This document shows, piece after piece, positions 127 through 64,000 of a stretch of DNA of 64,000 nucleotides (positions are counted from its first letter, which is position 1; each line of letters begins with the position of its first letter). A model generated the notes under the pieces. The model saw nothing but the letters and a program-made list of their open reading frames with translations. It did no database searches and had not been told where the DNA came from. This DNA comes from a virus. A program made the position numbers and the translations under genes. The stretch is from positions 23,663-87,662 of IMG/VR virus record IMGVR_UViG_3300049893_000773. The stretch is one strand, 5' to 3'.

Positions 127-2238
127 ATGGCACCTCCTCGTGACGAATCATTCTTTGACCGCCTGACAAGGCTTTTCCGCTCAGGTCCGTCTGTTCGTCG
201 CAAAATTCGGGGATATGACGACTCCGGGTATTACGACAAACAGGCCGTTCTAGCTGCCAGGGCAGGCAACGGGAACGGAATGATCCCGTTTCGCAAGGGA
301 ACCTCCCACAACTCCCCGTTTGCCATGTTGGGCGGCTCGGACATCATGAGCCGTATGACTCGGTACATGGAGTTTGCCGAGATGGAGTATACGCCCATCA
401 TCTCCAAGGCTTTGGACGTTCAAGCCGACGAAGCTTGTTCCGGGGATGAAAATGGCAAAAACTTCCACATCTACTCCGACAACCCAACCGTCAAGGAAGC
501 CCTCTCGGAGCTGTTCTACGAAATCTTGAACGTGGACTTCAATCTCCGGGTGTGGATCAGGAACCTCTTGAAGTACGGGGACCTGTTCCTCTACAACGAG
601 GTTGCCCCAGGCGTCGGGGTTGTCAACGTCATGGCTCTGAACGTCAATGAGGTTGAGCGGGATGAGGGCTTTGACGCCAACGATCCTTACGCTGTTCGTT
701 TCCGTTGGCACAAAAACGGCCAAAAAGTCTTGGAGAACTGGCAGGTTACCCACTTCCGCATCCTGGGAAATGATCAGTTTGCTCCTTACGGAACCTCGGT
801 ACTTGAGTCTGCCCGTCGTATTTGGCGTCAATACGTGATGATGCTCGATGCCATGCTGGTTTACCGCTTGGTTCGCTCGCCTGAGAGAAGGGTGTTCTAC
901 GTTGACGTTGGAACTGTCGCTCCAAATGACATTCCGAACTACATGAACACCGTCATGTCCACAATTCGAGGACAGATGGCAGTAGACAAGGAGACGGGTC
1001 GTCTGGATGAGAGGTTCAACCCAACGGACGTTCTGGAAGACTACGTGGTTCCCGTCCGTGGAGCCAACTCTGGCACCAAGATTGATACCCTTGCCGGTGG
1101 AACTCACCAGACCGCAACAGAGGACATCGAGATCATCCAGTCCCAACTCTTTGCCGCTTTGGGTGTGCCAAAGGCATATTTGGGATATGACGACATGCTT
1201 TCCTCCAAAGCCACCCTGGCCCAAGAGGACATCCGTTTCTCCAGGACGATCCAAATCTACCAGAAAATCATCATTTCCGAGCTGAACAAGCTTGCTATCC
1301 TTCACCTCTACGCCCGTGGATTTGAGGGAGAGGACTTGATGGACTTCCAGCTTCGACTTTCCAATCCATCGTCCGTGGCACTTCAGCAGAAATTGGACCT
1401 GTGGAAGACCAAGATCGACATTATTGGAGCCGTTGATCAGATCGAGACCCGTTTCCTTCCAATGGAATGGCTCTACAAGGAGATCATGGGTTTCACCGAG
1501 GATGAGATCAAGGGTCTGCGGGAGAAGCTCAAAGAGGACAAGCGCTTCGCTGTGGAACTGGATTCCATTGTTGACATGGACACCACGGGGGAGAACACCG
1601 TCGATCCATTCGACGCAACCTCCTACCTGCCCCCAGGAGGCTCTCCAACAATGGATACAACCCTTCCTTCCCCTCCGGTGGGTTCTTCCCTTCAAGGGGC
1701 TCCTCCATCGCCTACAGCGCCTCCAGATGCCCAACCTACCACTTCCTCTTCCCCTGTCGCTCTGAGGCTGGGTAAGGGTGAGGTGCCGATCAAGGTCAAC
1801 CCACAAGTCAGGATGGACAAGCGCAATCAGCGTCGGCGCAAGAGTGAGCTTGAAAAGCAGGCAAATCAGCCGGACTTCGCTGCAATGCTGCATCCGTCGA
1901 AGAATGCCTCCCTTCGTGACCTTTACGACCAGAACTTCTTGCGTGATCCCCTGGCCGAGCAGATTCGAAACGACCTTGGGGCAAACAAAGTTCGTATTCC
2001 CAAGGAAATCAAGACGATGCTTGAGAAGTTCGACAAGGCCACGGGCCGGTCGAAGATGCTGGTGGAACAAAGCCCACCTCCTCCTGAAGCAGATGGTCCA
2101 ATGATCGACATGATCGAGGAAGAAATCGATTTCTCAGACCTTCTTGAGTCCTTGGAGGTAAATGAGAGCAAATTGCCAACGTTTGCCATCTTGGCCAAAC
2201 TTGGACTGGAAATCAAAGACGCAGAAACGGACACCTAA
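127..2238 (+). CDS. Portal protein (T4 gp20-like) with Pro-rich C-terminal extension
   Basis: Motifs YGTSVLESARRIW, DAMLVYRLVRSPERRVFYVDVG, EDYVVPVRG, KIDTLAGG, LFAALGVPK and DIRFSRTI match gp20-type portals; first gene of the head module. Confidence 0.93.
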   Translation: MAPPRDESFFDRLTRLFRSGPSVRRKIRGYDDSGYYDKQAVLAARAGNGNGMIPFRKGTSHNSPFAMLGGSDIMSRMTRYMEFAEMEYTPIISKALDVQADEACSGDENGKNFHIYSDNPTVKEALSELFYEILNVDFNLRVWIRNLLKYGDLFLYNEVAPGVGVVNVMALNVNEVERDEGFDANDPYAVRFRWHKNGQKVLENWQVTHFRILGNDQFAPYGTSVLESARRIWRQYVMMLDAMLVYRLVRSPERRVFYVDVGTVAPNDIPNYMNTVMSTIRGQMAVDKETGRLDERFNPTDVLEDYVVPVRGANSGTKIDTLAGGTHQTATEDIEIIQSQLFAALGVPKAYLGYDDMLSSKATLAQEDIRFSRTIQIYQKIIISELNKLAILHLYARGFEGEDLMDFQLRLSNPSSVALQQKLDLWKTKIDIIGAVDQIETRFLPMEWLYKEIMGFTEDEIKGLREKLKEDKRFAVELDSIVDMDTTGENTVDPFDATSYLPPGGSPTMDTTLPSPPVGSSLQGAPPSPTAPPDAQPTTSSSPVALRLGKGEVPIKVNPQVRMDKRNQRRRKSELEKQANQPDFAAMLHPSKNASLRDLYDQNFLRDPLAEQIRNDLGANKVRIPKEIKTMLEKFDKATGRSKMLVEQSPPPPEADGPMIDMIEEEIDFSDLLESLEVNESKLPTFAILAKLGLEIKDAETDT

Positions 2239-2325: not shown

Positions 2326-3204
2326 ATGTTGAAGTCCCCTACTTTGAAGCACAACAAGAAGCGAAATGTCGGCCTCCTGAACGAGTTCTTTGCTCGTTAC
2401 ATTGCCAAGGCCATCCTCGAAAAGCGTGATGGGGACATTGAGAAGGCGAAAGCCCTCTACGCTCGTCACTTTCAAAAGGGGACGGAGATAAGCCGGGAAC
2501 TTCGGTTGTTCACCAATCTCTTTGAGACTCGTGTGGAATCGAGGGAGGCAGCATTCTCCTTGCTCAACCAAGTGAAGGAAGCATGCAAGCTTCAATCCCA
2601 GGCACGTATTGACCTGGAGAAGACAGCCCTTCTCCATGAGATCAATCAGACCTTCGGGGAGTGCAACTTTTTCGATCAGGAGATTGCTGAGTACAGAGAG
2701 TATGCCACGGTTCAGGTGTTGCTCAACCACTGGCGTGGTCGTGTGGTGACTGAGAACCTGAGTGAAGCTGTCCAGTTGGAAGACAAGCTGGTTCTACGTC
2801 TCACCAGCAAGTCTCCTGTCGTTGAAAGCAAGTCCTTGGAAATGCAGGAATCCGAGGTTGATGGTTTGGTTGTCAACCTGATGATCCAGAAGTTCAACCA
2901 AAAGTTCGGGTCGATGTTGAACGAGGAGCAGAAGAAGCTCCTCCGACTGTACGTCTTCTCCAAGGACAATGCCAATGCCAAGGAAGAACTCGTTCGTCTC
3001 TTGGAGGGACTCAAGGAGAAGTCTTCCAAGATGATCGACACTGCTATGGCCAAGGACAAGGATGCTCAGAGGGTGAAGCCAAAGCTCCTGGAAGTCAAGC
3101 AGATGCTTCAAGAGACCTACCAAGACACATCTGCACCAGATGACTCCTTGGTAACCTTCTACATGTCCATCTCCAAGCTGAATGAGGAACTCTCCAATGA
3201 GTAA
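2326..3204 (+). CDS. Conserved head-module hypothetical protein (helical, Lys/Glu-rich)
   Basis: 292-aa ORF between portal and protease, preceded by TAGTTA (2273) and an AAGGA SD. Confidence 0.75.
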   Translation: MLKSPTLKHNKKRNVGLLNEFFARYIAKAILEKRDGDIEKAKALYARHFQKGTEISRELRLFTNLFETRVESREAAFSLLNQVKEACKLQSQARIDLEKTALLHEINQTFGECNFFDQEIAEYREYATVQVLLNHWRGRVVTENLSEAVQLEDKLVLRLTSKSPVVESKSLEMQESEVDGLVVNLMIQKFNQKFGSMLNEEQKKLLRLYVFSKDNANAKEELVRLLEGLKEKSSKMIDTAMAKDKDAQRVKPKLLEVKQMLQETYQDTSAPDDSLVTFYMSISKLNEELSNE

Positions 3205-3817
3205 GCTGCTTTTGCAAGAATTTGCCCAGTTCGACTACAAGAAACCAACCGACGAGGAAGGCAAGCCACGTCTTTCCAAGTACGGGAACATCCTTGTAAA
3301 GGGAGTCATTCAGCGTGCTGACGCCCTTAACCAGAATGGTAGGGTCTATCCAAGGCACATCCTTGAGAGGGAAGTTCGCAACTACATGACCCTGGTCAAG
3401 GAACGCAGGGCTACCGGAGAGCTCGACCACGCAGATTCTCCAACCGTCAACCTCCAGAACGCTTCCCACATTATCACGGATATTTGGTGGGAAGGCAATG
3501 ACCTCTGGGGTGAGATCGAGGTTCTTGAGGACCTTGATCAAGGAAGGAACCTCAAAGGACTCCTGAAGAACGATGTGAAGGTTGGAATCTCCTCCCGTGC
3601 TCTTGGAAGCGTGCAGAGGCTTGGGGAAACCAATGTGGTTCAAGAGGACCTTTACCTTGTGTGCTGGGACATTGTTTCCGAGCCGTCCACCCACGGTGCA
3701 TTCATGATGCAAGAAGCCAAGAGCTATTCCGACGAGGAAGTGCGTCGAATCATGAGCAAATCTGACCGTATTGACCGTGCCGCTAATGAAGTCCTGGCCC
3801 TGAAAGGAAGGCGCTGA
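3197..3817 (+). CDS. Prohead core protease (T4 gp21-like)
   Basis: NQNGRVYP, GELDH, SHII, VGISSRALGS and WDIVSEPSTHGA motifs; ATG at 3197 overlaps the upstream gene end. Confidence 0.93.
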   Translation: MSKLLLQEFAQFDYKKPTDEEGKPRLSKYGNILVKGVIQRADALNQNGRVYPRHILEREVRNYMTLVKERRATGELDHADSPTVNLQNASHIITDIWWEGNDLWGEIEVLEDLDQGRNLKGLLKNDVKVGISSRALGSVQRLGETNVVQEDLYLVCWDIVSEPSTHGAFMMQEAKSYSDEEVRRIMSKSDRIDRAANEVLALKGRR

Positions 3818-4789: not shown

Positions 4790-6868
4790 ATGTCGTCAAT
4801 TTTCGAAGAAGCGTTGCTTGAGGCAAAGAAACTGCGTCAAGTAGCTGAAGAGGATGCAAAAAACACCCTCATTCAAGAAATGACCCCTGTGATCCGCAAG
4901 ATGATCACGAACCAGCTTGCAGGCAAGTCCAGCGTTCTCTTCGAAGAGGAATTGCCTGCTGACCCAACAGCGTCCCCAGAAGCCCCTGTAGAGCCAGCAA
5001 TGGACCCTGCGGGCTCTGCCATGCCTGCGGCTGCACCTGTTCCTGTTGAGCCGCCTGCGAGCGGTGCTGCTGACGCACCTATTAAGGTGTCGGGCGCAGA
5101 AGTCATGAACATGCCAATGCCTGGACCAGATGGCAAGCTGGTAATTGACTTGGACGATCTTTTCGTTCCGGCAGAGCCAGGAGCGGAGACGCCTGATGAG
5201 GGTTCTGCTTCTGCCGAAGCTCCTCCAGCAATGCCCGGTGGGATGCCATCGCCAACTCCAGTGGATGTGAACCCAAGTGGTTCGGCACCAGAAGAAGCAC
5301 CAGCCCCAGAGGCTCCGGCTGCCCCTGTGGAGCCGGTTGCCACGGCAGGAGCCGAAGAGGTTCCGCCTCCCCCAGAGGAGCCAGCAATGGAGGAAACCTA
5401 CGAGCTTTTTGCCGAGGAGCTAAAGACCACGGCTGATCGCATTCACCAAGCCTATTCCTCCAAGGTTGGAGTTCCATCCCTTGTGAAGGAAGCTCTTCAG
5501 GAAAAACTCTATCAGCTTCTTGAATCCCTGGAATCGTTGAGCCGCAGAAACATGGTTTCTGAGCGTCTCACCCAAATCCAAGAGAGCCGTTTGGAGATTT
5601 TGCACCGCAAACTGAAAGAAGCAGTTGTCGCTAATACTTATCACAGAACAGAAGAAGGAACCGGAACTGACATGGCAAGCAAGTCGCTCAAGGAAATGGC
5701 TGCAAAGATGCTCGCAGAGAGCGCTTCGGTTGAGGGTGGTCCCGTCAAGTCTCCCGCTGATGTCCACAAGACAGAGGTGACGATGAAGGTTGACAACTCG
5801 CAGGAACAGGCTGCTGACAAGGCAGGAGCCCACGCTATGAAGGTTACGGAGCCTACTGTGACCCTCAAGACGGAATCGGCTGAAGCACAGGCTCAGGCTG
5901 CTCTTGCTGAGGAGCTTGCCGCTCTTGTTGCCGAGGGTTCTGGCGAGTCGCTTGCAGCCAAGGATGGGGAGCAGGATCTTGCTGGTGCTGCTTCGTCGAT
6001 TCCTGACAAGAAGGTTGGTCAAGTGGACCCAACGAAGAGCACGGCTGCAAGCAAGACCAATCCAGCTTCGCACGTTCAGGGTGTTGCAGAGTCGGTTGCT
6101 GTTTCGAGCAAGGCTCTTGCAGAGCAGACCAAGAAGATCAAGGCAGAAGCCTTGAAGAAGCAGATTGCCGCCCTTCAGGAGCAACTGAAGGAATGCGGGA
6201 TGCCAATGGAGGGCGATGCCCTTCCTGCGCCAGGAGCCCCAGCAATGGGTGTGATGGGCGAGGAAGATACGGTCATCAACTTCAACTTCGACCTCGCTGA
6301 TCTTCTGCCAGGACTTTCGGATCTTGGCGATGAAGACGAGATTGACATTGTGGGCGACGAGCCATCTGACGAGCCAAGCACCTTGGGCCCTGTGGGCGGT
6401 GCTGAACCAGAGGGTGACGACGCTGACGACCTTGAGCTTGCCGATGAGGACGAGCCAGAGGTTTCGCAACTTGCAGAGGGCAGGAAGTCCGGCAAGGGTG
6501 CGGGCAAGATTGTAGCGGAGAACAAGGATCTCCGTTCGCAACTTGCAACCGAGAAGCTGTTCAACGCAAAGATGGTTCATTTCCAGCCTTTCGTTAACAA
6601 TCCAAATCTGACCAAGCAACAGAAGCACAAAATTGCGGAGCACCTGGACAGAGGAACATCGCTTGAAGAAGTGAAGGCAATCTACAACCGCGTGAAGGTT
6701 GTGGTGGAGAACATGCAGAAGGTCTCTTCGAAGGCAGGAAGCTCTTCGAAGCCGGGTGTGACCCCTGCATCGACTCTCAGCGAGTCTGCCAACCCATACG
6801 AGGGATCGACCCTGGTGGAAGCAGAAAAGAATCGTTTGATGCAACTTGCTGGAATCAAGCGCAAGTGA
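4790..6868 (+). CDS. Prohead scaffold/core protein (gp22-like role)
   Basis: Acidic, Pro/Ala-rich, coiled-coil protein directly upstream of the MCP; many L/V-x-E sites; ends RLMQLAGIK. Confidence 0.75.
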   Translation: MSSIFEEALLEAKKLRQVAEEDAKNTLIQEMTPVIRKMITNQLAGKSSVLFEEELPADPTASPEAPVEPAMDPAGSAMPAAAPVPVEPPASGAADAPIKVSGAEVMNMPMPGPDGKLVIDLDDLFVPAEPGAETPDEGSASAEAPPAMPGGMPSPTPVDVNPSGSAPEEAPAPEAPAAPVEPVATAGAEEVPPPPEEPAMEETYELFAEELKTTADRIHQAYSSKVGVPSLVKEALQEKLYQLLESLESLSRRNMVSERLTQIQESRLEILHRKLKEAVVANTYHRTEEGTGTDMASKSLKEMAAKMLAESASVEGGPVKSPADVHKTEVTMKVDNSQEQAADKAGAHAMKVTEPTVTLKTESAEAQAQAALAEELAALVAEGSGESLAAKDGEQDLAGAASSIPDKKVGQVDPTKSTAASKTNPASHVQGVAESVAVSSKALAEQTKKIKAEALKKQIAALQEQLKECGMPMEGDALPAPGAPAMGVMGEEDTVINFNFDLADLLPGLSDLGDEDEIDIVGDEPSDEPSTLGPVGGAEPEGDDADDLELADEDEPEVSQLAEGRKSGKGAGKIVAENKDLRSQLATEKLFNAKMVHFQPFVNNPNLTKQQKHKIAEHLDRGTSLEEVKAIYNRVKVVVENMQKVSSKAGSSSKPGVTPASTLSESANPYEGSTLVEAEKNRLMQLAGIKRK

Positions 6869-6903: not shown

Positions 6904-8817
6904 ATGAAAACTTTCTCTCTTTCGCAATTGGCAGAAGGCGTAAACCGCCGCTCGCTTGGTGCTGATGCGCCAAGGCTTCTGTCCAAGTGGTCTGCAACCG
7001 GACTTCTTGAGGGACTTGGTGGTATGCAGAAGGAGACGCTCTCGCGCCTTCTGGAGAACCAAGTGGCCCAGCTCATTCAGGAGTCCAACGCCATCTCGAC
7101 GGGTGGTGCATCTCTGACCTCCTCGGGTCAGATTGCAGGCTTCTCGAACGTTGCCTTCCCTATCGTTCGTAGGGTCTTCGCTGGCCTCGTTGCCAACGAA
7201 GTGGTTTCGGTTCAGCCAATGAGCCTTCCTTCGGGACTGCTCTTCTACTTGGATTACACCTACGGCTCGAACGTTGGTGGTGATGCAGGTCTGAGCCTCT
7301 CGACCTCGGCAACGGCTGACACCTACAAGAGGGCAACCTCGGTGTACGGTCTTCCAACTGGAGCCTCGATCCGTTCGGGTGCAACTCCTGCTGGTGGCCA
7401 GTACGACCTCGTGGGTCACGGCTTCTCCAAGGTTCACAAGGGTGCTCTGAACATCACTGGCTCTACGGACTCGGTGGGTTACTGGCTCTCGGGCTCGACC
7501 TGGACAACGGGCACCTCGGCTGTCGTGGCAGCTTCGGCTGACTGGACCGGCTACAACGCCCGCTACGCTGGGTTCCGCCAGGACATCCAGAATGGTCTTG
7601 ACAACGGCGACTTCGACTACTGCTTCATGTTCATCTCGGCCTCCGAGTTGGCAGGCAAGATTTCGGGTCTCGATCTGAACGCTCTTGACCAAATCTCGAT
7701 CACTGGTTTCGGTTCGGCAGCAAACTCTGTGACCGCTTGGGGCGACAGCTTCCAGGGTGGTCTTGGAGTCCTGAACCTCCGCGCTCTGAACAAGCGTGGT
7801 GACTGGAACGCAGCCGCAGGTACCTTCACCCCAAACCCACTCGGCGGAAGCCACGTGTTGTTTGTGCTGAAGATCGCCAACGCAGGCACGGCTCCACAGC
7901 CAACCGGCGTGGCTTCGACCTACATCTCTGGCTCGGCAGCAATTGCAGACGCTCTTTCGGTTGGTTCGGAGGGCACGACCCTTACGGTCCCATCGTTCGA
8001 AACGGACTTCGCAGTTGACTCCTCGCCAAGGATTCCAGAGGTTGACATCAAGATCGAGGGTGTCTCGGTCACTGCAACGACCCGCAAGCTCCGTGCTCGT
8101 TGGTCGCCAGAGATGGCACAGGACCTTACGGCCTTCTACTCCATCGACGTGGAAGTGGAACTCACAAATATCCTGTCCGAGATGATCACGCTCGACATCG
8201 ACCGCGAAATCTTGAACGATCTCCTCACACAGGCCACAGCAGCAAACCTGTTCTGGTCGCGTGCTCCAGGACGCATCGTCAACAAGACCACTGGTCAGGA
8301 AGCTCTCCACAACAACGTCTTGGCCCCAGGCCCACAGTTCTTCGGAAATGTGCGTGAGTGGTACGAGACGCTCATGGAGACGATCACGGATGCAGCCAAC
8401 ACGATTCACAGGAAGACCCTCCGTGGTTCGGGTAACTTCATCGTCACGTCGCCAGACGTGGCAACGATCTTCGAGCACCTTGTGGCCTACAAGCCAGCAT
8501 ACAAGGTTGACTCCGATGGTCAGGTGAAGGAGTCGATGACGATTGGCGCAGAGGCAATCGGCACGCTCAACAACCGCTACGTGGTCTACAAGGACCCTTA
8601 CTTCCCACAGAACAAGATTCTGATTGGTTTGAAGGGCAACACCTTCCTGGAGTCGGGATACATCTACGCTCCATACGTTCCACTCATCTTGACTCCTGTG
8701 ATCTACGCACAGGAGGACTTCACTCCTCGCAAGGGTGTGATGACCCGCTACGGTAAGAAGATGGTCCGTGCTGACTTCTACGCCACTGTGACCGTGCTCG
8801 ACATGGCCCTCATCTGA
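6904..8817 (+). CDS. Major capsid protein (T4 gp23-like) with large insertion
   Basis: FPIVRRVFAGLVANEVVSVQPMSLPSGLLFY, TRKLRARWSPEMAQDL, EMITLDIDREIL, GYIYAPYVPL and FTPRKGVMTRYG motifs. Confidence 0.96.
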   Translation: MKTFSLSQLAEGVNRRSLGADAPRLLSKWSATGLLEGLGGMQKETLSRLLENQVAQLIQESNAISTGGASLTSSGQIAGFSNVAFPIVRRVFAGLVANEVVSVQPMSLPSGLLFYLDYTYGSNVGGDAGLSLSTSATADTYKRATSVYGLPTGASIRSGATPAGGQYDLVGHGFSKVHKGALNITGSTDSVGYWLSGSTWTTGTSAVVAASADWTGYNARYAGFRQDIQNGLDNGDFDYCFMFISASELAGKISGLDLNALDQISITGFGSAANSVTAWGDSFQGGLGVLNLRALNKRGDWNAAAGTFTPNPLGGSHVLFVLKIANAGTAPQPTGVASTYISGSAAIADALSVGSEGTTLTVPSFETDFAVDSSPRIPEVDIKIEGVSVTATTRKLRARWSPEMAQDLTAFYSIDVEVELTNILSEMITLDIDREILNDLLTQATAANLFWSRAPGRIVNKTTGQEALHNNVLAPGPQFFGNVREWYETLMETITDAANTIHRKTLRGSGNFIVTSPDVATIFEHLVAYKPAYKVDSDGQVKESMTIGAEAIGTLNNRYVVYKDPYFPQNKILIGLKGNTFLESGYIYAPYVPLILTPVIYAQEDFTPRKGVMTRYGKKMVRADFYATVTVLDMALI

Positions 8818-56348: not shown

Positions 56349-56364
56349 TCCCATATTTAGGTGG

Positions 56365-58227
56365 GTGAAGACCTACCTCAGATTTGGCGAAATTCCAAAA
56401 AGTGGCAAATCAGGCATTGGGGATGCCTGGAGACGCCAAGCTGCCCTCTACGGGGAGATTGTTCCGACCGAGGAACAAGGTGTTTCTGTGTATGATGCCA
56501 CCCTCGTTGACATCAAAGGGGTCAAGAAGTGGCGTCCTACGGTCAATGAGTTCCAAACCTTCATGGGGGTCTATGGGGACGCCTGCAAGGGAGCCAGGAC
56601 CATTTACTTGATCACCGGGGAAGAACTGCCGGAAGGTGGTTCCGACGGGGAGCCTTTGCTCAAGGCAGATACCATCAAGGTCCTGAAGAAGCTGAGCTTC
56701 AAGGACATTTACCACAAAGAGATCGACCCAGGGCTCTATGATGATGACTGGTGTCAAGACGGCTTGAAGAGAGAGAAAGAGCTTGGGATCATGGAAAAAG
56801 CGGCCCTGAAGGAGTTTCTGGAAGCAGCAGCCCTTGATGAACTTTCAAAGATCACAGAACCCAAGAGAAGCGGGCTCCCTGTTGATCAACTCGGATTGAA
56901 GCCTGGGGGAGGTGTTCACAACATCGTGACCGTCTACAACCAAGCAACTCCCGAGGAAAAGGAATATTGGGGAAGGTGGTATCACAACGCCAAGTCCGAT
57001 GTCGAGGACCTTGCTGCAACCTACAACCTTCCATTCCCTGTAGCAGCAGCCGTTGTTGCTGTCCTATCTCCAGGAAACAAGTGGGCTCTGAACCTCTTGG
57101 CTGCGGAGAAGGTCCTGAAGGGCGCAGAGAAGATCAACGCCTATCCACGTCAGGTTGCAAGGGCCAAGGAGATCATTCGAACAGGGAACACCAATCTCGT
57201 AACCGGCCCAAAGGTCACCGTCTTCTTCAAGTCCCTGATGGACCCTTCTTCTGTTGAGAAGGACATGGTTCTTGACGGCCATGCCATCAATATTTGGCGT
57301 GGAGCAAAAGAAGCCCTCAAAGGCTTGAAGTCCCCAAGCACCAAGGAACGGGCCCAGATGATCCAGGACTACCAAGAGGCCGCAAAGCAGCTTGGAGTCC
57401 CTGTCCAAGCTGTTCAAGCTACAACTTGGTACATTTGGAAGTACACAGGAAAGACCGCCCCTCTCCCAGTGGAGAAGGGTGTCTACGACGTGTCCAAGTT
57501 CACTGGAGCCAAGCCAGCAAACGACGTAGACGCCATCATGGAGGAGTTCCTGGACGAGTTCAATGCAATGGGCACAGGAGCCGTTCAAGGCTACACAGGG
57601 CCCCTTGGAGCCGATCCTGAGCCTACCCACAAGAAGATGTGGAGCGACCCAAAGAACGAGGGGAAGGGCCCAAAGATGGAATACAACCCAATGCCTTCCG
57701 AGCTTTGGGAGATTGAATGGCCTGGATCAGAGAATCGTCCGCCTGACTACTACCCGCCTACAAGTGAGAACGGCTATTACTATGGAGTGCTCAAAGGCGG
57801 GAAAGGAAAGAAGTCGGAGTTCTCGGTGAATCTAGAAGATGTAGCTGGGCAGCACGATGCGACCACTACAGCCTTGGTTCGTTGCCGAAGCACTGATTTT
57901 GAAAAAGGCAAGGTGGACGCCAAAGTTTTTGAAGCCTGGAACGACAAAGAAGGGCTGTGGATGCCTGTTTCTGAAATGGTAATTCAAGAGAACGTCCTGG
58001 ATCAGATGGGACAGAAGCACGTCGGGGGAGCTTCCAGGAAGAGCCCTTACGGGGACACCTATGTCGGGTTCTCCTCTGGGAAGAATGAAGACGAATCAGG
58101 GCGGGACAAGCAGAGCAAGATCGTCCAGAAGGTCAACAAGAACCTCGACAAGAAGCCGTACAGCCTTCATGATCCTCCAGGAATGGGTATCTCGATTACC
58201 CGTCCTTCCCTCAAGGACAGAAAGTAG
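56365..58227 (+). CDS. Multi-module putative internal head polyprotein with an HhH/glycosylase-like domain
   Basis: GTG start MKTYLRF 5 nt after TATTTA; internal MEKAALKEFLEAAALDE tag; WY..LSP..W..N..GPKV..F..DGH..QA.TW domain. Confidence 0.6.
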   Translation: MKTYLRFGEIPKSGKSGIGDAWRRQAALYGEIVPTEEQGVSVYDATLVDIKGVKKWRPTVNEFQTFMGVYGDACKGARTIYLITGEELPEGGSDGEPLLKADTIKVLKKLSFKDIYHKEIDPGLYDDDWCQDGLKREKELGIMEKAALKEFLEAAALDELSKITEPKRSGLPVDQLGLKPGGGVHNIVTVYNQATPEEKEYWGRWYHNAKSDVEDLAATYNLPFPVAAAVVAVLSPGNKWALNLLAAEKVLKGAEKINAYPRQVARAKEIIRTGNTNLVTGPKVTVFFKSLMDPSSVEKDMVLDGHAINIWRGAKEALKGLKSPSTKERAQMIQDYQEAAKQLGVPVQAVQATTWYIWKYTGKTAPLPVEKGVYDVSKFTGAKPANDVDAIMEEFLDEFNAMGTGAVQGYTGPLGADPEPTHKKMWSDPKNEGKGPKMEYNPMPSELWEIEWPGSENRPPDYYPPTSENGYYYGVLKGGKGKKSEFSVNLEDVAGQHDATTTALVRCRSTDFEKGKVDAKVFEAWNDKEGLWMPVSEMVIQENVLDQMGQKHVGGASRKSPYGDTYVGFSSGKNEDESGRDKQSKIVQKVNKNLDKKPYSLHDPPGMGISITRPSLKDRK

Positions 58228-58271
58228 CTCCAGCGGTAACTTCTTTTTTGTCTGCGCACTATGCTACCTCC

Positions 58272-58511
58272 ATGACAGAGAAGGTTAGCAAGCGCAAGCA
58301 GAAGAAGTCTGAGAACACCGAATTCGCCCCCACTAGCGGACCAGGGCAACTCCTTTGGATTTCGGCAGGGGAGCTTCGAAGGGTTATCGAGATTATCGCC
58401 GCCTCAGAGGAAATCTCGATTCAGGAAGCTGCTCAGAGCGTGAACGAACTCTTGGTGGCCAAGACCTTGATCATTGCTCCCACCTTCGCAAGGCTTGAGG
58501 TGCGTCCATGA
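58272..58511 (+). CDS. Hypothetical protein
   Basis: ATGA overlap with thyA. Confidence 0.5.
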
Positions 58512-59482
58512 GACAATATCAAGAAATGCTTCGCCACATCCTTGAGAATGGCGAATACATCGGGAATGGTAGGACCAAGGAAGGCTACTACAGCGTCTTT
58601 GGCTACCAGAACCGCTACAACCTCCGTGATGGTTTCCCATTGGTTACCACAAAGAAGGTTCCCTTCCGCTTGATTGCCTCGGAGTTGCTCTGGTTCCTTA
58701 GCGGAAGCAGCAACGTCAAGGACCTCCAAGCCCAGAATAACCACATTTGGGATGAGTGGGCCACCAAGGAGCAATGCGCCAAGTTTGGGCGCGAAGAAGG
58801 CGACCTTGGACCTGTCTATGGTCCTTTGTGGAGGAAGTGGGAAGCTGTGTCCAGGTGCACACCTCCTGCTTGGGAGCCGCTGTTCAACGCAAAAGGAGAA
58901 CAGGTTTCGGCAATGCCTCCAAGAGCTCCATACATGAATCCCGACAACCCACAATTGGAAAGAGAATGGAATACGCTGTGGAGCATGGGATTGTCTGTGA
59001 CCAAAATTGACCAAATTGCTCGTGTGATTGAGCGAATCAAGACGAATCCGTCTTGCCGCAGGTTGATTGTCTCCGGTTGGAACCCTGCAACCTGCGACAA
59101 GGTTGCTCTCCCACCTTGCCATACCCTGTTCCAGTTCCGGGTATCTCATGGAGGAACGAGGTTGAACTGCCAGCTTTACCAGAGGAGCGCTGATGCCTTC
59201 CTGGGAGTTCCGTTCAACATCGCTTCCTACGCCCTCTTGACCCACATGGTCGCCCAGGTGACGGGTTTGGAGGTTGGTGAGTTCATCCACACCTTCGGGG
59301 ACCTGCACGTCTACGAGAATCACGTGGATCAGGTGAAGCTTCAGCTTTCCCGGCCCCCAATGACCCTTCCAACCCTCTGGTTGAACCCGGAAGTCAAGAA
59401 GATCGACGACTTCAAGATGGAAGACATTCGCCTGGATGGGTACGAGGCTCACCCGGCAATCAAGGGAGATGTAGCGGTATGA
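58508..59482 (+). CDS. thyA: Thymidylate synthase
   Basis: [49 protein letters not shown] and GDLHVYENH motifs. Confidence 0.96.
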
Positions 59483-59637
59483 AGGACGTGAATCTGCACC
59501 TATGGGCCAAGGAAGCCATCAAGGGTGGGGTGATTGAGCGGCTTGAAAAGGCTATTGCTTCCACTTCTGATCCCTTCATGAAAGCCCTTCACCTTGAACA
59601 AATCAAACAAATCAGGCAGCTAGCCTCAGCCTCGTGA
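59479..59637 (+). CDS. Small hypothetical protein (52 aa, not in the ORF track)
   Basis: ATGA and GTGA overlaps at the two ends; [17 protein letters not shown]... Confidence 0.55.
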
Positions 59638-60008
59638 GTAGAGTTGACATGATCACAGAAAATTGCATCAAAAAGTGGAGAACGACTGGCCTTCTTGAAG
59701 GACTTTCAGGAGAACCTGAAAGTCGGTGTGCTGAGGTGCTGGAGAACGCAGCAGTTGAAATCATCAAACAAGGGCATGAGGGTCGTACGGTGGAGCTCCT
59801 ATTCCCTGTAATTCGACGGATGGCAGGGGAAGGGTTTTACCCTTCCGATGCTGCTTGGTTGGTTGAGGATTTCCAAAATTGGATGAAGACCCGTGGTTCC
59901 CACATTGACTTCTGCTTCACAGTAGAAGCTGAAGTTGAGTTCTGCGCCCAGTATTCAACAGAATGCCCAGAGAGGTTCAGCAGGAGAAACAATGTCGCTA
60001 GCAATTGA
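59634..60008 (+). CDS. MCP N-terminal-fragment paralog 1
   Basis: IKKWRTTGLLEGL...AEVLENAA...LLFPVIRR vs MCP LSKWSATGLLEGL...SRLLENQV...VAFPIVRR. Confidence 0.75.
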   Translation: MSRVDMITENCIKKWRTTGLLEGLSGEPESRCAEVLENAAVEIIKQGHEGRTVELLFPVIRRMAGEGFYPSDAAWLVEDFQNWMKTRGSHIDFCFTVEAEVEFCAQYSTECPERFSRRNNVASN

Positions 60009-60327
60009 AGACGGAAACTTTCACACGGTCAAGGTTGGGGAGCACTGGAGAATCCAACCTGTTCGCAGCCCCTACATGTGTCCGCTCCTGGAGTGCAACG
60101 GAGAAAAGTGCGATCCGGCGAGGCATATGTGGATGGCTGTGGACCCGGCACATTTGGTGAATGGCAAGCCAAACGATGATTGCTGCTACTTTGACGTGGA
60201 AATCATGAAGGTAACGGATCAAGTCATCGAGTGCAAGACCTTGCCCGAGCCCGATGGAAGCTACCTCGTGTTTGAGGTCTTGAACTCGGACGCCATTGTC
60301 CGGTTCTATCGCAAGGACAGCGTATGA
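59992..60327 (+). CDS. Hypothetical protein
   Basis: AGGAG SD; ATG at 59992. Confidence 0.6.
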   Translation: MSLAIEDGNFHTVKVGEHWRIQPVRSPYMCPLLECNGEKCDPARHMWMAVDPAHLVNGKPNDDCCYFDVEIMKVTDQVIECKTLPEPDGSYLVFEVLNSDAIVRFYRKDSV

Positions 60328-60671
60328 GTTCAACTGCCTGGGCAACATTGTTCTACGGGGCAACCTTCACCACGGCAGAGCTCGAAGCCTTCTTTGGCCT
60401 TGAGCTTGGTGCTGACAACTGGGAGGAGATTGATGAGCGGCTTGAGGACCTTGGTTTCGAGAGGGTTGTTCGGGACTCCTATGCTGATGACTCCGATAGG
60501 GTCATTGTTTCAGCCAAAACGATCGAGGTAAGCCGTTACCAGCATTTCAGGCCAGTATCGCCAGAAGACCTCCATGTTGACATCGAGGTTGGGCAGAAGT
60601 ACCAGGATTTCGTTTTCGCGACGGGCTTGAAGAAGTCCGTTGGTTGGTTCCTTTGTGCAGGAGACGTGTGA
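60324..60671 (+). CDS. Hypothetical protein
   Basis: ATGA coupling; acidic, 115 aa. Confidence 0.6.
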   Translation: MSSTAWATLFYGATFTTAELEAFFGLELGADNWEEIDERLEDLGFERVVRDSYADDSDRVIVSAKTIEVSRYQHFRPVSPEDLHVDIEVGQKYQDFVFATGLKKSVGWFLCAGDV

Positions 60672-60734
60672 AAGAGATGATTGTAGACGCCAGAGCAATT
60701 GGGATCGAGCAAGCAAAGCGACTTCTTACGGAAA

Positions 60735-61118
60735 ATGAGTAATCCACTTGACCAGTTGAACGCCAGGAGACTTTTCATCTATTGGAAGAATACTGGTTTG
60801 CTGGATAACTCTTCCGATCAAGCTCGCTTGGCTTCGTATCTTCAGGAGATGAATAGCCATCTCAAGGCGGTGGCGCCAGAAACGCCAACGGATTTTGAAG
60901 CAGCCGAGATTGTATTGCCGATTATCATTCGATTGACGGATGATGGCATTTGGTTGCCGGTCCCTGTGCTCTACAAAATGCTAGTTGACTGGATTGACAA
61001 CGAGTTCTATAGTTTGGAACTTGATCCCCACATGATCGAGCTTTGGAATCGTGATAAGATCGAAGGCTTTCTTGGCTACATAAGGGAAAAGTATCCCAAA
61101 GGAAAAGATGGAGCATGA
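60735..61118 (+). CDS. MCP N-terminal-fragment paralog 2 (divergent)
   Basis: ARRLFIYWKNTGLLD...LASYLQE...IVLPIIIRL vs MCP APRLLSKWSATGLLE...LSRLLEN...VAFPIVRR. Confidence 0.55.
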   Translation: MSNPLDQLNARRLFIYWKNTGLLDNSSDQARLASYLQEMNSHLKAVAPETPTDFEAAEIVLPIIIRLTDDGIWLPVPVLYKMLVDWIDNEFYSLELDPHMIELWNRDKIEGFLGYIREKYPKGKDGA

Positions 61119-61338
61119 CTTTTTCCCTTTCATTGCTTACGAGAAATGCCGCATTTGCGGGGTGATACGCTTTGAAGTCAAGGCTCTTGTACCCCCAACT
61201 TGGGGTCTGAAACCTGGAGAGCGTCCATTCACCTCGGAGATGAGGGTAGAACGAATTTGTTTCACTTACAGGCAAGAGGGGGAAACGTGGACGACGAAGG
61301 AGCCAGAATGCAAGACTTACCATCCCAAGACGGACTGA
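61108..61338 (+). CDS. Hypothetical protein
   Basis: CRICG motif; overlaps the upstream gene end. Confidence 0.5.
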   Translation: MEHDFFPFIAYEKCRICGVIRFEVKALVPPTWGLKPGERPFTSEMRVERICFTYRQEGETWTTKEPECKTYHPKTD

Positions 61339-61349
61339 GAAGGCTCTGC

Positions 61350-61646
61350 ATGGCCATTCAAAACGGTCCTGAGCGGTGGCAGAAATCTCACGATCGTTGG
61401 CCCACTCTCGACGACGATCTTGCCGATGGGCATGTCGGGAGCATGAATTGGCTCCTGACGACGTTCCTCCAAACGTTTGAAAATGCCAGCACTTCCGACC
61501 AAAGACTTGCTATCCTGGCAATCAAGGATGCGGTGCGATGGCTGGACGCGCATAGGAAAACCAACGCCCTGTTGCTTGAGGTGTACGATCTTGGCAACTT
61601 CATTTCTTGGTGGCACAACGAGAATGTGGGATTTACGTTCAGATAA
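61350..61646 (+). CDS. Hypothetical protein
   Basis: GAAGG SD; ATG at 61350; TAATG coupling. Confidence 0.55.
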   Translation: MAIQNGPERWQKSHDRWPTLDDDLADGHVGSMNWLLTTFLQTFENASTSDQRLAILAIKDAVRWLDAHRKTNALLLEVYDLGNFISWWHNENVGFTFR

Positions 61647-61972
61647 TGGACAAATTCACGGTTGGGCAAAAGTTGATCGGGACAGGGATGAATGACGCGG
61701 GCCTTGACTTTGAGGTTATGGAGGTGGAACCCGTGGTCAAGGTCAAGTGCCTCTCGATCAATGAGTTCTGGCGCAATATCCCCCTGAAGCCATTCCCTGC
61801 TCCCTCTCCTCATGTTGAGCGCATGTGGACTCCAGGGATGGTCTATGAGCTTCGGGAGGTGAGCTCCAAGCTCGACCGGGAGGCGCGTGGGTATGCCTGT
61901 TACGTTTCGGTTGACTTCCGCATGCCTTGGCATTGCTTTCTCACGAATGGCCAAGTGATGTATTACCGCTGA
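61646..61972 (+). CDS. Hypothetical protein
   Basis: ATG at 61646 MDKFTVG. Confidence 0.55.
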   Translation: MDKFTVGQKLIGTGMNDAGLDFEVMEVEPVVKVKCLSINEFWRNIPLKPFPAPSPHVERMWTPGMVYELREVSSKLDREARGYACYVSVDFRMPWHCFLTNGQVMYYR

Positions 61973-61979
61973 ATGCCAG

Positions 61980-62007
61980 TTGACATTCGGTATACTGTGT
62001 ATATCAT
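61980..62007 (+). promoter_or_regulatory. Sigma70-like promoter
   Basis: TTGACA-N16-TATCAT. Confidence 0.55.
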
Positions 62008-62013
62008 GCCGTC

Positions 62014-62250
62014 ATGGGAATGAATCTGCCACTTGGTTCGGAGTACATCACTGGTGACGGTGGTGGCCTCGCTTTCAAGCTGATCTCCAATCGGCAGGTG
62101 GTATGCACCAAGAGTGCTCCTCACTGGCAGAGGTTCTTCCAGGTAGGCCACTTGTACTCGATCGACCAGAACGACAATCTGATTGTCGAGGGGGATCGCC
62201 AGAGCAAGCCTTGGGTTGGGTTGAGATTCGATGGTCGGATTATCACTTGA
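62014..62250 (+). CDS. Hypothetical protein
   Basis: ATG 6 nt after the -10 element (possibly leaderless). Confidence 0.55.
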   Translation: MGMNLPLGSEYITGDGGGLAFKLISNRQVVCTKSAPHWQRFFQVGHLYSIDQNDNLIVEGDRQSKPWVGLRFDGRIIT

Positions 62251-62274
62251 CTCCACCGGAACACGAATTAAGCT
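62247..62274 (+). promoter_or_regulatory. Sigma70-like promoter
   Basis: TTGACT-N16-TAAGCT. Confidence 0.45.
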
Positions 62275-62300
62275 GTAATCACGGAAAGGGAACAAACACC

Positions 62301-63131
62301 ATGTGCATCATCGCCGTCAAGCCCGAGAAGGTCCAGTTTACCAAGAACCAGTGCCGCACCATGTGGAACGCCAACCCCCACGGGGCTGGTTTCATGTACG
62401 CAACCGGGAAGAAGGTCGAAATCGTCAAGGGTCTCATGACCTTCGCTGACTTCTGGGATGCGTACGAGGCGGCTGGCCCCCTCCGCAAGATGGTCGTCCA
62501 CTTCCGCATCAAGACGCACGGCGACGTGAACCCGGAGAACACGCACCCCTTCTGGGTTGTGAAGAACAAGTTCGCCCTGGCTCACAACGGGATCATCCGT
62601 CCCCTGGTGGACAAGACCTCGGCTGCTGAGAGTGACACGGCTGTGTTTGCTCGGATGCTGGCCGAGAACTACGGCAATCCCATCGACGCGGTGAACAACT
62701 CGTTCATCCGTTCGACCCTGGAGGAGTACATCGGTCACTCCAAGGTGGTCTTCATGAACGCCAAGGGTGAGACGATCATCCTCAACTCTCGGATGGGTAC
62801 GTGGCACCAGAACGTCTGGTACTCCAACGACTCCTACAAGGAGCCCAAGAAGAGCGAGGCGTCGGAGGGGTGGTCGAAGACCCTGGACCAACTGGTCAAG
62901 AAGTACGGGAAGGATGCTGTCTCCGTCGTTGACGGAAACACCTACCGCCCTCAGAAGGAGTTGAGCGGCCCCAAGCAGCTTATCCAGGCTCCTGAGCACT
63001 TCGCTCCTTCTCCTCCCAAGGCCAGCTACAAGGCTCAGGGTTCGTCGAAGCCCAACACGGTCTTCCACGCCAAGGACTTCGACCAGGATGACGCTGAGTT
63101 GGCCGAGGCGATGCAGAAGTGGGGTAACTGA
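62301..63131 (+). CDS. Class II (Ntn) glutamine amidotransferase
   Basis: Starts MC (catalytic Cys); NPHGAG, HFRIKTHG, NTHPF, HNGII and SDT motifs. Confidence 0.9.
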   Translation: MCIIAVKPEKVQFTKNQCRTMWNANPHGAGFMYATGKKVEIVKGLMTFADFWDAYEAAGPLRKMVVHFRIKTHGDVNPENTHPFWVVKNKFALAHNGIIRPLVDKTSAAESDTAVFARMLAENYGNPIDAVNNSFIRSTLEEYIGHSKVVFMNAKGETIILNSRMGTWHQNVWYSNDSYKEPKKSEASEGWSKTLDQLVKKYGKDAVSVVDGNTYRPQKELSGPKQLIQAPEHFAPSPPKASYKAQGSSKPNTVFHAKDFDQDDAELAEAMQKWGN

Positions 63132-63286
63132 GTCTTGTTCAGGCTGAGCCCCTCACTCCTGGTGCAGGAAATCGTAAAAGTGCAACCCATGAGCCGTCCC
63201 TCTGGGTTGCCTTTCTATTTGGACTTTCAATACGGCGAGAAGAAGAAGAAGAGAAATCCCTTTCGGTGGACCTGTTTAAGGGTACG

Positions 63287-63787
63287 ATGCAAAGACAGGA
63301 AGTAAGCTTGATTGTGGCGGTGGACGATGGAGGGGTGATCGGTCACAATGGGTCTTTGCCAGATTGGCATGCCCCTGGAGACCTGAAGAGGTTCAAGGAG
63401 CTTACCATTGGCAAAAGTGTGATCATGGGTCGCAGGACCTATGAATCCATTGGGAAACCATTGCCAAACAGGTGTAATATCGTTCTGAGCCGCACCTTGC
63501 TCGAAGGAACCGGTATTCACATTGTCCGTTCCTGGGATGAGGCTTTGAAGCTGGCTGCTTTGGTAGCCCAGGGATCGGAAATCATGGTGATTGGCGGTGC
63601 TGACATCTACGCCCAAGCCCTGCCAATTGCCTCTCGTGTGTACTTGACCAGAGTGCACGGCAGGCATCCGGGGGATGCTTTCTTTCCACCTCTTGATCCC
63701 AAGAAATGGGTGGTAGTGGAACAAGTGGCCCTTCCAACCCATTCGTACCTGATTTACGAGCGCAGGGTTAACAACACCTCCTCTTGA
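63287..63787 (+). CDS. folA: Dihydrofolate reductase
   Basis: LIVAV, IG..G.LP.W..PGDLKRFK, IMGRRTYES, PLPNR, IGGADIY and GDAFFP motifs. Confidence 0.95.
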   Translation: MQRQEVSLIVAVDDGGVIGHNGSLPDWHAPGDLKRFKELTIGKSVIMGRRTYESIGKPLPNRCNIVLSRTLLEGTGIHIVRSWDEALKLAALVAQGSEIMVIGGADIYAQALPIASRVYLTRVHGRHPGDAFFPPLDPKKWVVVEQVALPTHSYLIYERRVNNTSS

Positions 63788-63803
63788 TCGTACGCTAGGC
63801 TCC

Positions 63804-64000
63804 ATGACGAAGAATTACGAAGAATTGGGCCAACGTGTTGGAGCCTTGGTGGATGTAAAGAATGCAGCCTACGGTTCCAGCTTTGATGATGCTGGAGACT
63901 TTCTGCGTCTTCTCTACCCGAACGGGATTCAGCCAAGCCAGTACGGCGACGCCTTGGCCCTGGTTCGAATCTTCGACAAGATGAAGCGGATCGCTACAGA
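63804..64000 (+). CDS. Partial DUF1599 / nucleotide-modification-associated (MazG-like) protein
   Basis: MTKNYEELGQRVGALVDVKNAAYGSSF...VRIFDKMKRIAT; runs off the window end. Confidence 0.55.
   Translation, partial: MTKNYEELGQRVGALVDVKNAAYGSSFDDAGDFLRLLYPNGIQPSQYGDALALVRIFDKMKRIAT

Follow-up and report, generated by a model that had tools for sequence, protein, structure and literature searches.

Genes A and B are two small genes in a 64,000-nucleotide (nt) stretch of DNA from an uncultured giant T4-like phage, hereafter the window, which comprises bases 23663-87662 of the linear, 87.7-kb IMG/VR record IMGVR_UViG_3300049893_000773. CheckV puts the completeness of this record at ~25%, so the window represents part of a large phage genome. 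Sequence comparison identifies A and B as two diverged members of an old, widespread and uncatalogued family of small phage proteins. Profile alignments show how these proteins are built: the leading 60-65 residues form an N-module, copied long ago from the N-terminus of a gp23-type major capsid protein (MCP) and fused to a family-specific, helical C-module. The family is real and constrained, yet sporadic and mobile. Gene A is gained or lost as a cassette between near-identical strains, and B is kept. The explanation favoured here, held at slightly less than even confidence, is that the N-module binds a partner of the MCP N-terminus in the assembling prohead, and that the small proteins would in this way enter the head or tune its assembly.

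Homology to the capsid protein N-terminus

The MCP of the window is of the gp23 type; PDB chains of T4 gp23 align with it at E ~2e-27. When it is aligned with the mature T4 protein and with relatives, this places its maturation cleavage probably after E60, a glutamate that is invariant in all 15 aligned MCPs. The context, L-I-Q-E followed by S, is consistent with the L/I-X-E sequence after which gp21 cleaves (PMC9026906, PMC3012670). The gp21-type protease of the window is the enzyme expected to cut off the MCP propeptide. The 55-row profile of the family (see below) aligns with a six-row profile of MCP N-termini over 60 columns (hhalign probability 98.9, E 2e-17), and against the whole MCP of the window it matches residues 21-95 and nothing else. 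With cleavage after E60, the shared module would thus comprise most of the propeptide and the first 30-35 residues of the mature N-arm. Run as a hidden Markov model on 26 other related records, the family profile also picks out the MCP N-terminus in 25 of them (per-genome E 2.9e-7 to 5.1e-15). Two independent family members, P0193 and P0187, were searched against 50,697 GenBank phage records and hit MCP N-termini only (six records each, E 2e-5 to 6e-4). The residues common to the family and the MCPs (W, TGLL, L-E and P-I/V-I/V-R-R) are those nearly invariant among the MCPs themselves. T4 gp23 itself was not reached by the family profile at E <= 10 in a search of PDB sequences.

For gene A the relationship is visible pairwise. 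BLASTP places residues 12-63 of A on MCP residues 26-91 (37 bits, E 6e-8, 19/66 identical), and the Smith-Waterman score of 84 is reached by 0/2000 composition-matched shuffles (30.3 +/- 4.5, maximum 62). A sequence-only reading of the window had proposed this resemblance, and it holds. The same reading had taken A and B for fragments of this phage's own MCP; they are instead members of an old family with its own C-module. The identity of A is 32% to its own MCP and 30-40% to the MCPs of other phages. As A is not closer to its own MCP, either the duplication is old or the family moves between phages. A six-frame tblastn search with A of the same GenBank records (2.3 Gb) returned six records, all of them weak matches (E 0.06-2), and all six fall on the MCP N-termini of the closest MCP relatives. 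Translation of A probably starts at ATG 59649, where the database gene call P0009 and the homologues begin, and not at 59634 as first supposed; the alternative GTG start at 59634 would yield 124 residues.

For gene B the relationship is indirect. Its pairwise BLASTP comparison with the MCP is not significant (the high-scoring segment pair in the correct register has E 34), and its score is reached by 133 of 2000 shuffles against the whole MCP and by 11 of 2000 against MCP residues 1-120. The connection runs through A (E 2e-5; no shuffle in 2000 reaches the score) and through the profile of six MCP N-termini, to which hhalign aligns B over 58 columns in the same register (probability 60, E 8.6e-5). 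The earlier claim that B resembles the MCP N-terminus therefore stands via A and the profiles, and fails as a pairwise statement. The family-profile match of B covers positions 4-121 of 135; the N-module motifs are present and the C-module motifs only in loose form. Compared pairwise, the C-halves of A and B are not significantly alike (Smith-Waterman 20 vs 20.2 +/- 3.6 for shuffles), so that the common C-terminal pattern reported for them is upheld as a conserved module of the family but not between the two proteins alone. Searches with B found only B itself in a word-indexed search of 5.8 billion proteins, and chance matches only (E 7-8) by tblastn in the GenBank phages.

Alignment to mature T4 gp23 chains confirms that the MCP segment FPIVRR...VSVQPM corresponds to the T4 Gol region. 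The similarity of A and B to the MCP had been said to end at the start of that segment. It continues ~9-12 residues into it, through P-(I/V)-(I/V)-R-R to MCP residue ~95, and the VSVQPM core is absent.

The small-protein family

A profile of A, B and the homologue P0010 was run with hmmsearch, without a word index, against 1.84 billion representative proteins at E <= 1e-3. The search returned 57 proteins, nearly all of 86-189 residues; many matches cover almost the whole profile, and none is a full-length MCP. Three were left out of the family alignment: P0141, a 252-residue tandem double; P0162, a 42-residue remnant; and P0179, an 86-residue protein that resembles a truncated true MCP. The remaining 54 and P0010 form the 55 rows. 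In P0141 the whole unit occurs twice, head to tail, within one polypeptide, and its cluster mate P0192 has 253 residues. The family has a median length of 123 residues and is mostly acidic, with an isoelectric point (pI) below 6 in 43/55 members and a median of 4.99 (A 4.95, B 4.72).

Both modules have recognizable motifs. The N-module consensus reads KW-x-x-TGLL-x-GL, a helix A-x-x-LE-x-x-A-x-x-L, a variable loop and (I/L/F)-LP-I-I/V-RR-L-Y. The C-module consensus begins with WL-x-(D/E)-DF, followed later by D-x-EAE-(F/L)...Y and then by a basic tail; A carries both of its motifs, as WLVEDF and an EAEVEF...Y stretch. Between A and P0010, 5 of 58 columns differ in the N-module and 20 of 64 in the C-part (Fisher p 0.003). 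Pfam and PHROGs assign no common family to the 55 members: there are only single stray matches (E 0.003-0.009), including one to a 'major head protein' PHROG, the capsid family PF07068 is matched by 0/55 at E <= 0.01, and A and B have no Pfam match at E <= 1.

Family members are predicted to be all-helical. AlphaFold2 (AF2) models of A reached a predicted local distance difference test (pLDDT) score of 46 with a 2-row alignment and a mean of 62 with an 81-row alignment. In the second model, helix 2-11, loop 12-21 (containing TGLLEG) and helix 22-41 are predicted at pLDDT 71-78, and the rest consists of low-confidence helices. Foldseek found nothing in the PDB with the AF2 model (best E 2.2). 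Two further matches serve as leads only: for the ESM Atlas's own model of A the highest-ranking structural match is a Gp23 cluster (TM 0.51), and the C-part of the family profile (positions 54-126) resembles in sequence, at borderline significance, the cargo-binding domain at the C-terminus of Pex19 (PDB 2wl8 and 5lnf; E 0.01-0.014), a likeness that Foldseek on the AF2 model did not support. ESM Atlas feature matches for B, at 0.76, lie below the usable level.

The distribution of the family is patchy. When the profile was applied to 27 records (the phage's own genome and 26 related ones), intact members were found only in the own genome, as A and B, and in LR756508, an uncultured 484-kb phage; one further record holds a remnant. 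The LR756508 member is a 114-residue ORF (open reading frame; per-genome E 7e-12) that matches the MCP profile with a probability of 90 and E 1.5e-6, and LR756508 is the sole record found with a family member among the 50,697 GenBank phage records. Searches for related loci returned none, whether with A or with P0184 and P0187 in viral contigs, or with A and P0010 in metagenome contigs. One locus from genome contigs, retrieved with P0193 (L160), was a chance match inside a 363-residue bacterial ORF unrelated to the family and was dropped. A profile search of short proteins proved useless as a survey of paralogues: the best 120 of 557, besides A and P0010, resemble truncated capsid genes from short contigs, and PF07068 is present in most of them. 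An MCP-biased profile run on 20 IMG/VR relatives matched the MCP only, in 20/20, and the equivalent region may be missing from the five largest, which have no clear thyA (one weak partial match, E 1.1e-5) and no match to a dihydrofolate reductase (DHFR) gene. Literature searches, which did not extend to supplementary files, yielded no description of the family or of capsid-fragment decoys.

Gain and loss among strains

Logan contigs of three other DNA runs (X2, X3 and X4) hold near-identical phage DNA and allow strains to be compared. In two of the runs (X3 and X4), contigs, one of them 129.6 kb long, join position 59482 directly to 60000, and the 52-residue ORF and A are absent. One X2 contig joins 59637 to 60342, and in it A and the 111-residue ORF are absent; short X2 contigs match the window's own arrangement. 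B is covered without insertions or deletions in contigs of all three runs. It differs from the window there by TT>GG at 60928-60929, a change of ATT to AGG (I65R) that gives LPIIRR and restores the RR of the capsid motif. In two of the three runs the 54 nt 5' of B (60676-60729) are replaced by 7 nt, and an alternative TTG start is gone; the loss of that codon supports ATG 60735 as the start of B.

A further comparison is with an IMG/VR contig (L117) that is syntenic with window positions 53.9-64 kb and 84% identical to it in nucleotide sequence within thyA. From thyA to the next conserved gene it has ~650 nt, against ~2750 nt in the window. Only the first 75 nt of A remain, as a 42-codon ORF. 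The same contig has ~1 kb of extra DNA in an SNF2-type helicase gene (L117:940-1989): the matching points are 1049 nt apart there and adjacent in the window (54599/54607), and an intein, an intron or the insertion of a homing endonuclease may account for the extra DNA.

Genomic setting

A and B lie ~50 kb downstream of the head genes, among densely packed plus-strand ORFs flanked by the thymidylate synthase gene thyA (58508-59482) and the DHFR gene (63266-63787). Their coordinates are collected in Table 1 with those of their modules, the neighbouring ORFs and the head genes.

Table 1. Genes A and B, their neighbours and the head genes of the window; coordinates are window positions.
Feature	Coordinates	Strand	Evidence or remarks
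Gene A, 119 residues	59649-60008	+	family profile E 1.3e-37; 80%-identical homologue P0010
N-module of A, residues 1-58, homologous to MCP ~20-93	59649-59822	+	W-x-x-TGLLEG, VLEN, FPVIRR
C-module of A, residues 59-119	59823-60005	+	acidic, pI 4.53, predicted helical; WL-x-(E/D)-DF, D/E-x-EAE-x-(F/L)...Y
Gene B, 127 residues, diverged second family member	60735-61118	+	start ATG 60735; family profile E 4.5e-20
N-module of B, residues 8-69	60756-60941	+	W-x-x-TGLLD, YLQE, LPIIIR
52-residue ORF immediately 5' of A	59479-59637	+	lost along with A in some strains; also missing in L117
111-residue ORF immediately 3' of A	59992-60327	+	lost along with A in another strain; no match in Pfam or PHROGs
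115-residue ORF between A and B	60324-60671	+	sole Pfam match DUF6675, E 0.011, weak, under the curated cut-off
Portal	127-2238		T4-type head module
Head maturation protease, T4 gp21 type	3182-3817	+	phrog_207 E 7.1e-48
MCP, gp23 type, 637 residues	6904-8817	+	PF07068 E 3.9e-75; phrog_138 E 5.5e-70
MCP residues 20-95, segment homologous to the small proteins	6961-7188	+	propeptide helices, inferred maturation site after E60, N-arm start to FPIVRRVFAGL
Two MCP C-terminal paralogues, 266 and 217 residues	8930-10416	+	BLASTP to MCP 448-637 E 7e-15, to MCP 443-637 E 2e-29; separate finding

The nearest deposited MCPs are 37-46% identical to that of the window and belong to LR756508, the Flavobacterium phages 'immuto', Microcystis phage Mel-JY01 and Rhodothermus phage RM378; closer relatives number hundreds in IMG/VR. 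The gene pair at 8.9-10.4 kb, to which the sequence-only reading referred, resembles the MCP C-terminus, significantly so for both genes (Table 1). That reading had added this pair to A and B and counted four extra capsid pieces, which is correct as a statement of sequence similarity, though not of a functional set. In Mel-JY01, two hypothetical genes (~241 and ~199 residues; L005:4670-6077) lie directly 3' of the capsid gene and may be counterparts of the pair. Immediately 5' of the MCP gene, residues 26-42 of a 692-residue ORF (4790-6868) include a P-V-I-R-K-M stretch, to be compared with P-V-I-R-R-M of gene A; the match of the family profile to this ORF is not significant (hhalign E 0.26).

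The motif TANTTA occurs 21 times on the plus strand and 11 times on the minus strand of the window, and many plus-strand copies stand 11-64 nt 5' of the start codons of structural genes, as at -32 for the MCP. On the plus strand from 56354 to 64000 there is none, and A and B lack it, as had been stated. No copy of the T4 late-promoter consensus TATAAATA occurs in the window. A scan of 58000-64000 for sigma-70 promoters and terminators remained at chance level (5 promoter-like sites vs 3.6 expected). The best sigma-70-type site in that interval, at 61980-62007, reads TTGACA-16 nt-TATCAT, agrees at 11/12 positions and stands just 5' of an ORF that begins at 62014, although the set of sites as a whole is at chance level. 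A blastn search with 59400-61400 found no match in the GenBank phages. ThyA has 324 residues against the 266 positions of the Pfam profile. At 58840-59006, within thyA, contigs of the three other runs carry 87-107 different letters in place of ~160 nt, and a strain-variable insertion inside ThyA seems to be present.

Possible functions

The sequence-only reading had offered capsid mimics or decoys, or modulators that bind the scaffold. This remains the best class of explanation; a decoy of the Gol type is unlikely, only 9-12 residues of that segment being present. For the early expression that the same reading proposed, the only hints are the location of the genes between thyA and the DHFR gene and the absence of TANTTA. 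The mechanism favoured here can be set out in stages. (i) The small proteins would offer the same contact surface as the MCP N-terminus. (ii) Through it, the N-module would bind the scaffold core or the protease in the assembling prohead. (iii) Having bound, they would either be carried into the head as minor internal proteins or compete with the MCP and so tune assembly. In favour of this stand the homology to the MCP N-terminus, the better conservation of the N-module between A and P0010, the I65R change in B and the presence of a gp21-type protease gene.

Work on T4 supplies the background for this proposal. The first 65 residues of T4 gp23 are cleaved off by gp21. Up to ~L106, the N-terminal region faces the interior of the unexpanded head, with the gp22 core as its probable contact, and the head-length mutations A66D, A94V and G97S map to this region, the last two beside the R-R motif (PMC9546572). 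T4 also packs diverse and dispensable internal proteins by means of a short N-terminal capsid targeting sequence (CTS) that binds the core (PMC9026906, PMC3012670). The small-protein genes are dispensable accessory genes gained and lost as cassettes, as demonstrated for A. A begins M-I-T-E and P0010 begins M-I-A-E, an I-x-E fit that may be due to chance; B is without such a site near its start.

Several observations weigh against this proposal. The family is mostly acidic, whereas T4-type internal proteins are basic (PMC9026906). The genes, flanked by thyA and the DHFR gene, are 50 kb away from those for the head, with no TANTTA nearby, and intact copies occur in only 2/27 records, with a remnant in one more. 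The glutamate of the putative MCP maturation site is Q in A and P0010 and is not clearly kept in B. Motifs of the form L/I-x-E between helix 2 and PIxRR are in only mild excess (37/53 members vs 27.4 expected by shuffling). The AF2 models of A are poor, and Foldseek found nothing in the PDB.

The main rival is a decoy or blocker: the small proteins would occupy, without triggering it, a host factor that recognizes the N-terminal quarter of the MCP, be it a Lit/EF-Tu or Avs7-type sensor or a chaperone. We regard this as rather unlikely. The cassette-like behaviour of A, both between strains with near-identical flanks and in L117, and the faster evolution of the C-module are typical of counter-defence genes, and A and B lie among small accessory ORFs in a nucleotide-metabolism region. 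Capsid sensing that involves EF-Tu exists, in the Gol-Lit (PMC3014915) and Avs7 (PMC13581612) systems, and a stretch of ~100 residues in the first quarter of gp23 forms a more stable complex with EF-Tu than does the Gol region of 29 residues (PMC3014915). That the residues held in common with MCPs are the invariant ones is, moreover, what mimicry of a broadly conserved pattern would predict. Against this, most of the Gol-equivalent segment is missing, the similarity stopping near MCP residue 95, before VSVQPM. Neither a defence system nor a host partner is known to involve this region of these uncultured phages, and the literature searches yielded no described capsid-fragment decoy. A broader form of the idea, which we consider unlikely, is that the whole family consists of widespread pattern mimics, small soluble versions of the most conserved and first-translated surface of T4-type MCPs, swapped by giant phages as cassettes to blunt Lit/EF-Tu-like or Avs7-like sensors of nascent capsid protein.

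A quite improbable alternative makes the MCP itself, and not the scaffold, the target. The small proteins would be helper or chaperone-like factors that pair with the MCP's own N-terminal helices by like-with-like packing and so delay or guide assembly. The predicted helix-loop-helix of the N-module would suit such packing. The tandem double P0141 and the two copies 0.7 kb apart in the window would fit units acting in pairs, and the weak C-part match to Pex19 (E 0.01), a lead only, is to a helical cargo-binding chaperone domain. However, that match is of borderline significance and gained no confirmation from Foldseek with the model, self-association of MCP N-termini has no support in this clade, and dispensable, sporadic genes would be odd for a folding helper of an essential protein.

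Decay is the least probable explanation and is largely refuted: relics of old partial capsid-gene duplications, without present function, might account for the absence of A from close strains, its remnant in L117 and the lack of a close homologue of B in the word search, but not for 57 proteins of matching length with conserved motifs in both modules, for the intactness of A and P0010 with their constrained N-module, or for a B that is intact in all three other runs. The idea that the N- and C-terminal capsid pieces are the halves of a split vertex protein was rejected: both genes end in a stop codon of their own after a conserved C-module, and family members are found where such partners are missing.

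Significance

The reuse of the capsid protein's removable N-terminal piece on small accessory proteins is not described in the literature searched. If the N-module is a head address, T4-like phages would possess a second, capsid-derived route for loading proteins into capsids, and engineered phages could use the module to tag proteins for packaging. If the proteins are decoys, they would suggest that freshwater bacteria have immune sensors for nascent capsid protein, and no capsid-sensor decoy would have been described before them. In both cases a hypothesis open to testing becomes available for 55 or more sequence clusters of 'hypothetical proteins'. The residues common to the family and the MCPs (W, TGLL, P-I-V-R-R) mark the likely contact surface of the MCP N-terminus. 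In the T4 unexpanded-head structure this N-terminal region is disordered, and the model starts at L106 (PMC9546572).

Comparison with known systems

The closest relatives of the N-module are the gp23-type MCPs (PF07068), with which it has residues 21-95 and the motifs W, TGLL, L-E and P-I/V-I/V-R-R in common, in this phage and in the same region of related phages. Unlike them, the small proteins (119 and 127 residues vs 637) have no HK97-fold body, which means that they are not capsid proteins, and they carry a different, family-specific C-module. The T4 Gol peptide, which triggers the e14 Lit protease through EF-Tu, is comparable in that the family N-module ends inside the MCP segment aligned with the Gol region. 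The family has only the first 9-12 residues of this segment; lacking the conserved core, its members are not Gol equivalents.

Helical capsid-associated elements offer a conceptual parallel. CpmB of the Staphylococcus aureus pathogenicity islands (SaPI) is reportedly a competing scaffold protein. Together with the HK97-type delta domain, it belongs to the helical N-terminal capsid regions and small helical proteins that sit at the capsid-scaffold interface and can alter assembly (mentioned in PMC9546572), and the small proteins may be likened to these in concept only.

The T4 internal proteins and Alt, which carry a CTS, provide a possible functional analogy, drawn from their description: a short N-terminal, core-binding address on diverse, dispensable and fast-changing small proteins (PMC9026906, PMC3012670 for the T4 side). 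The address of the present family would be ~60 residues long and capsid-derived, in contrast to the 10-residue CTS of T4, and its proteins are acidic where those of T4 are basic. At most, the family may work as molecular mimics do, or apply the targeting principle of T4 in a form derived from the capsid protein.

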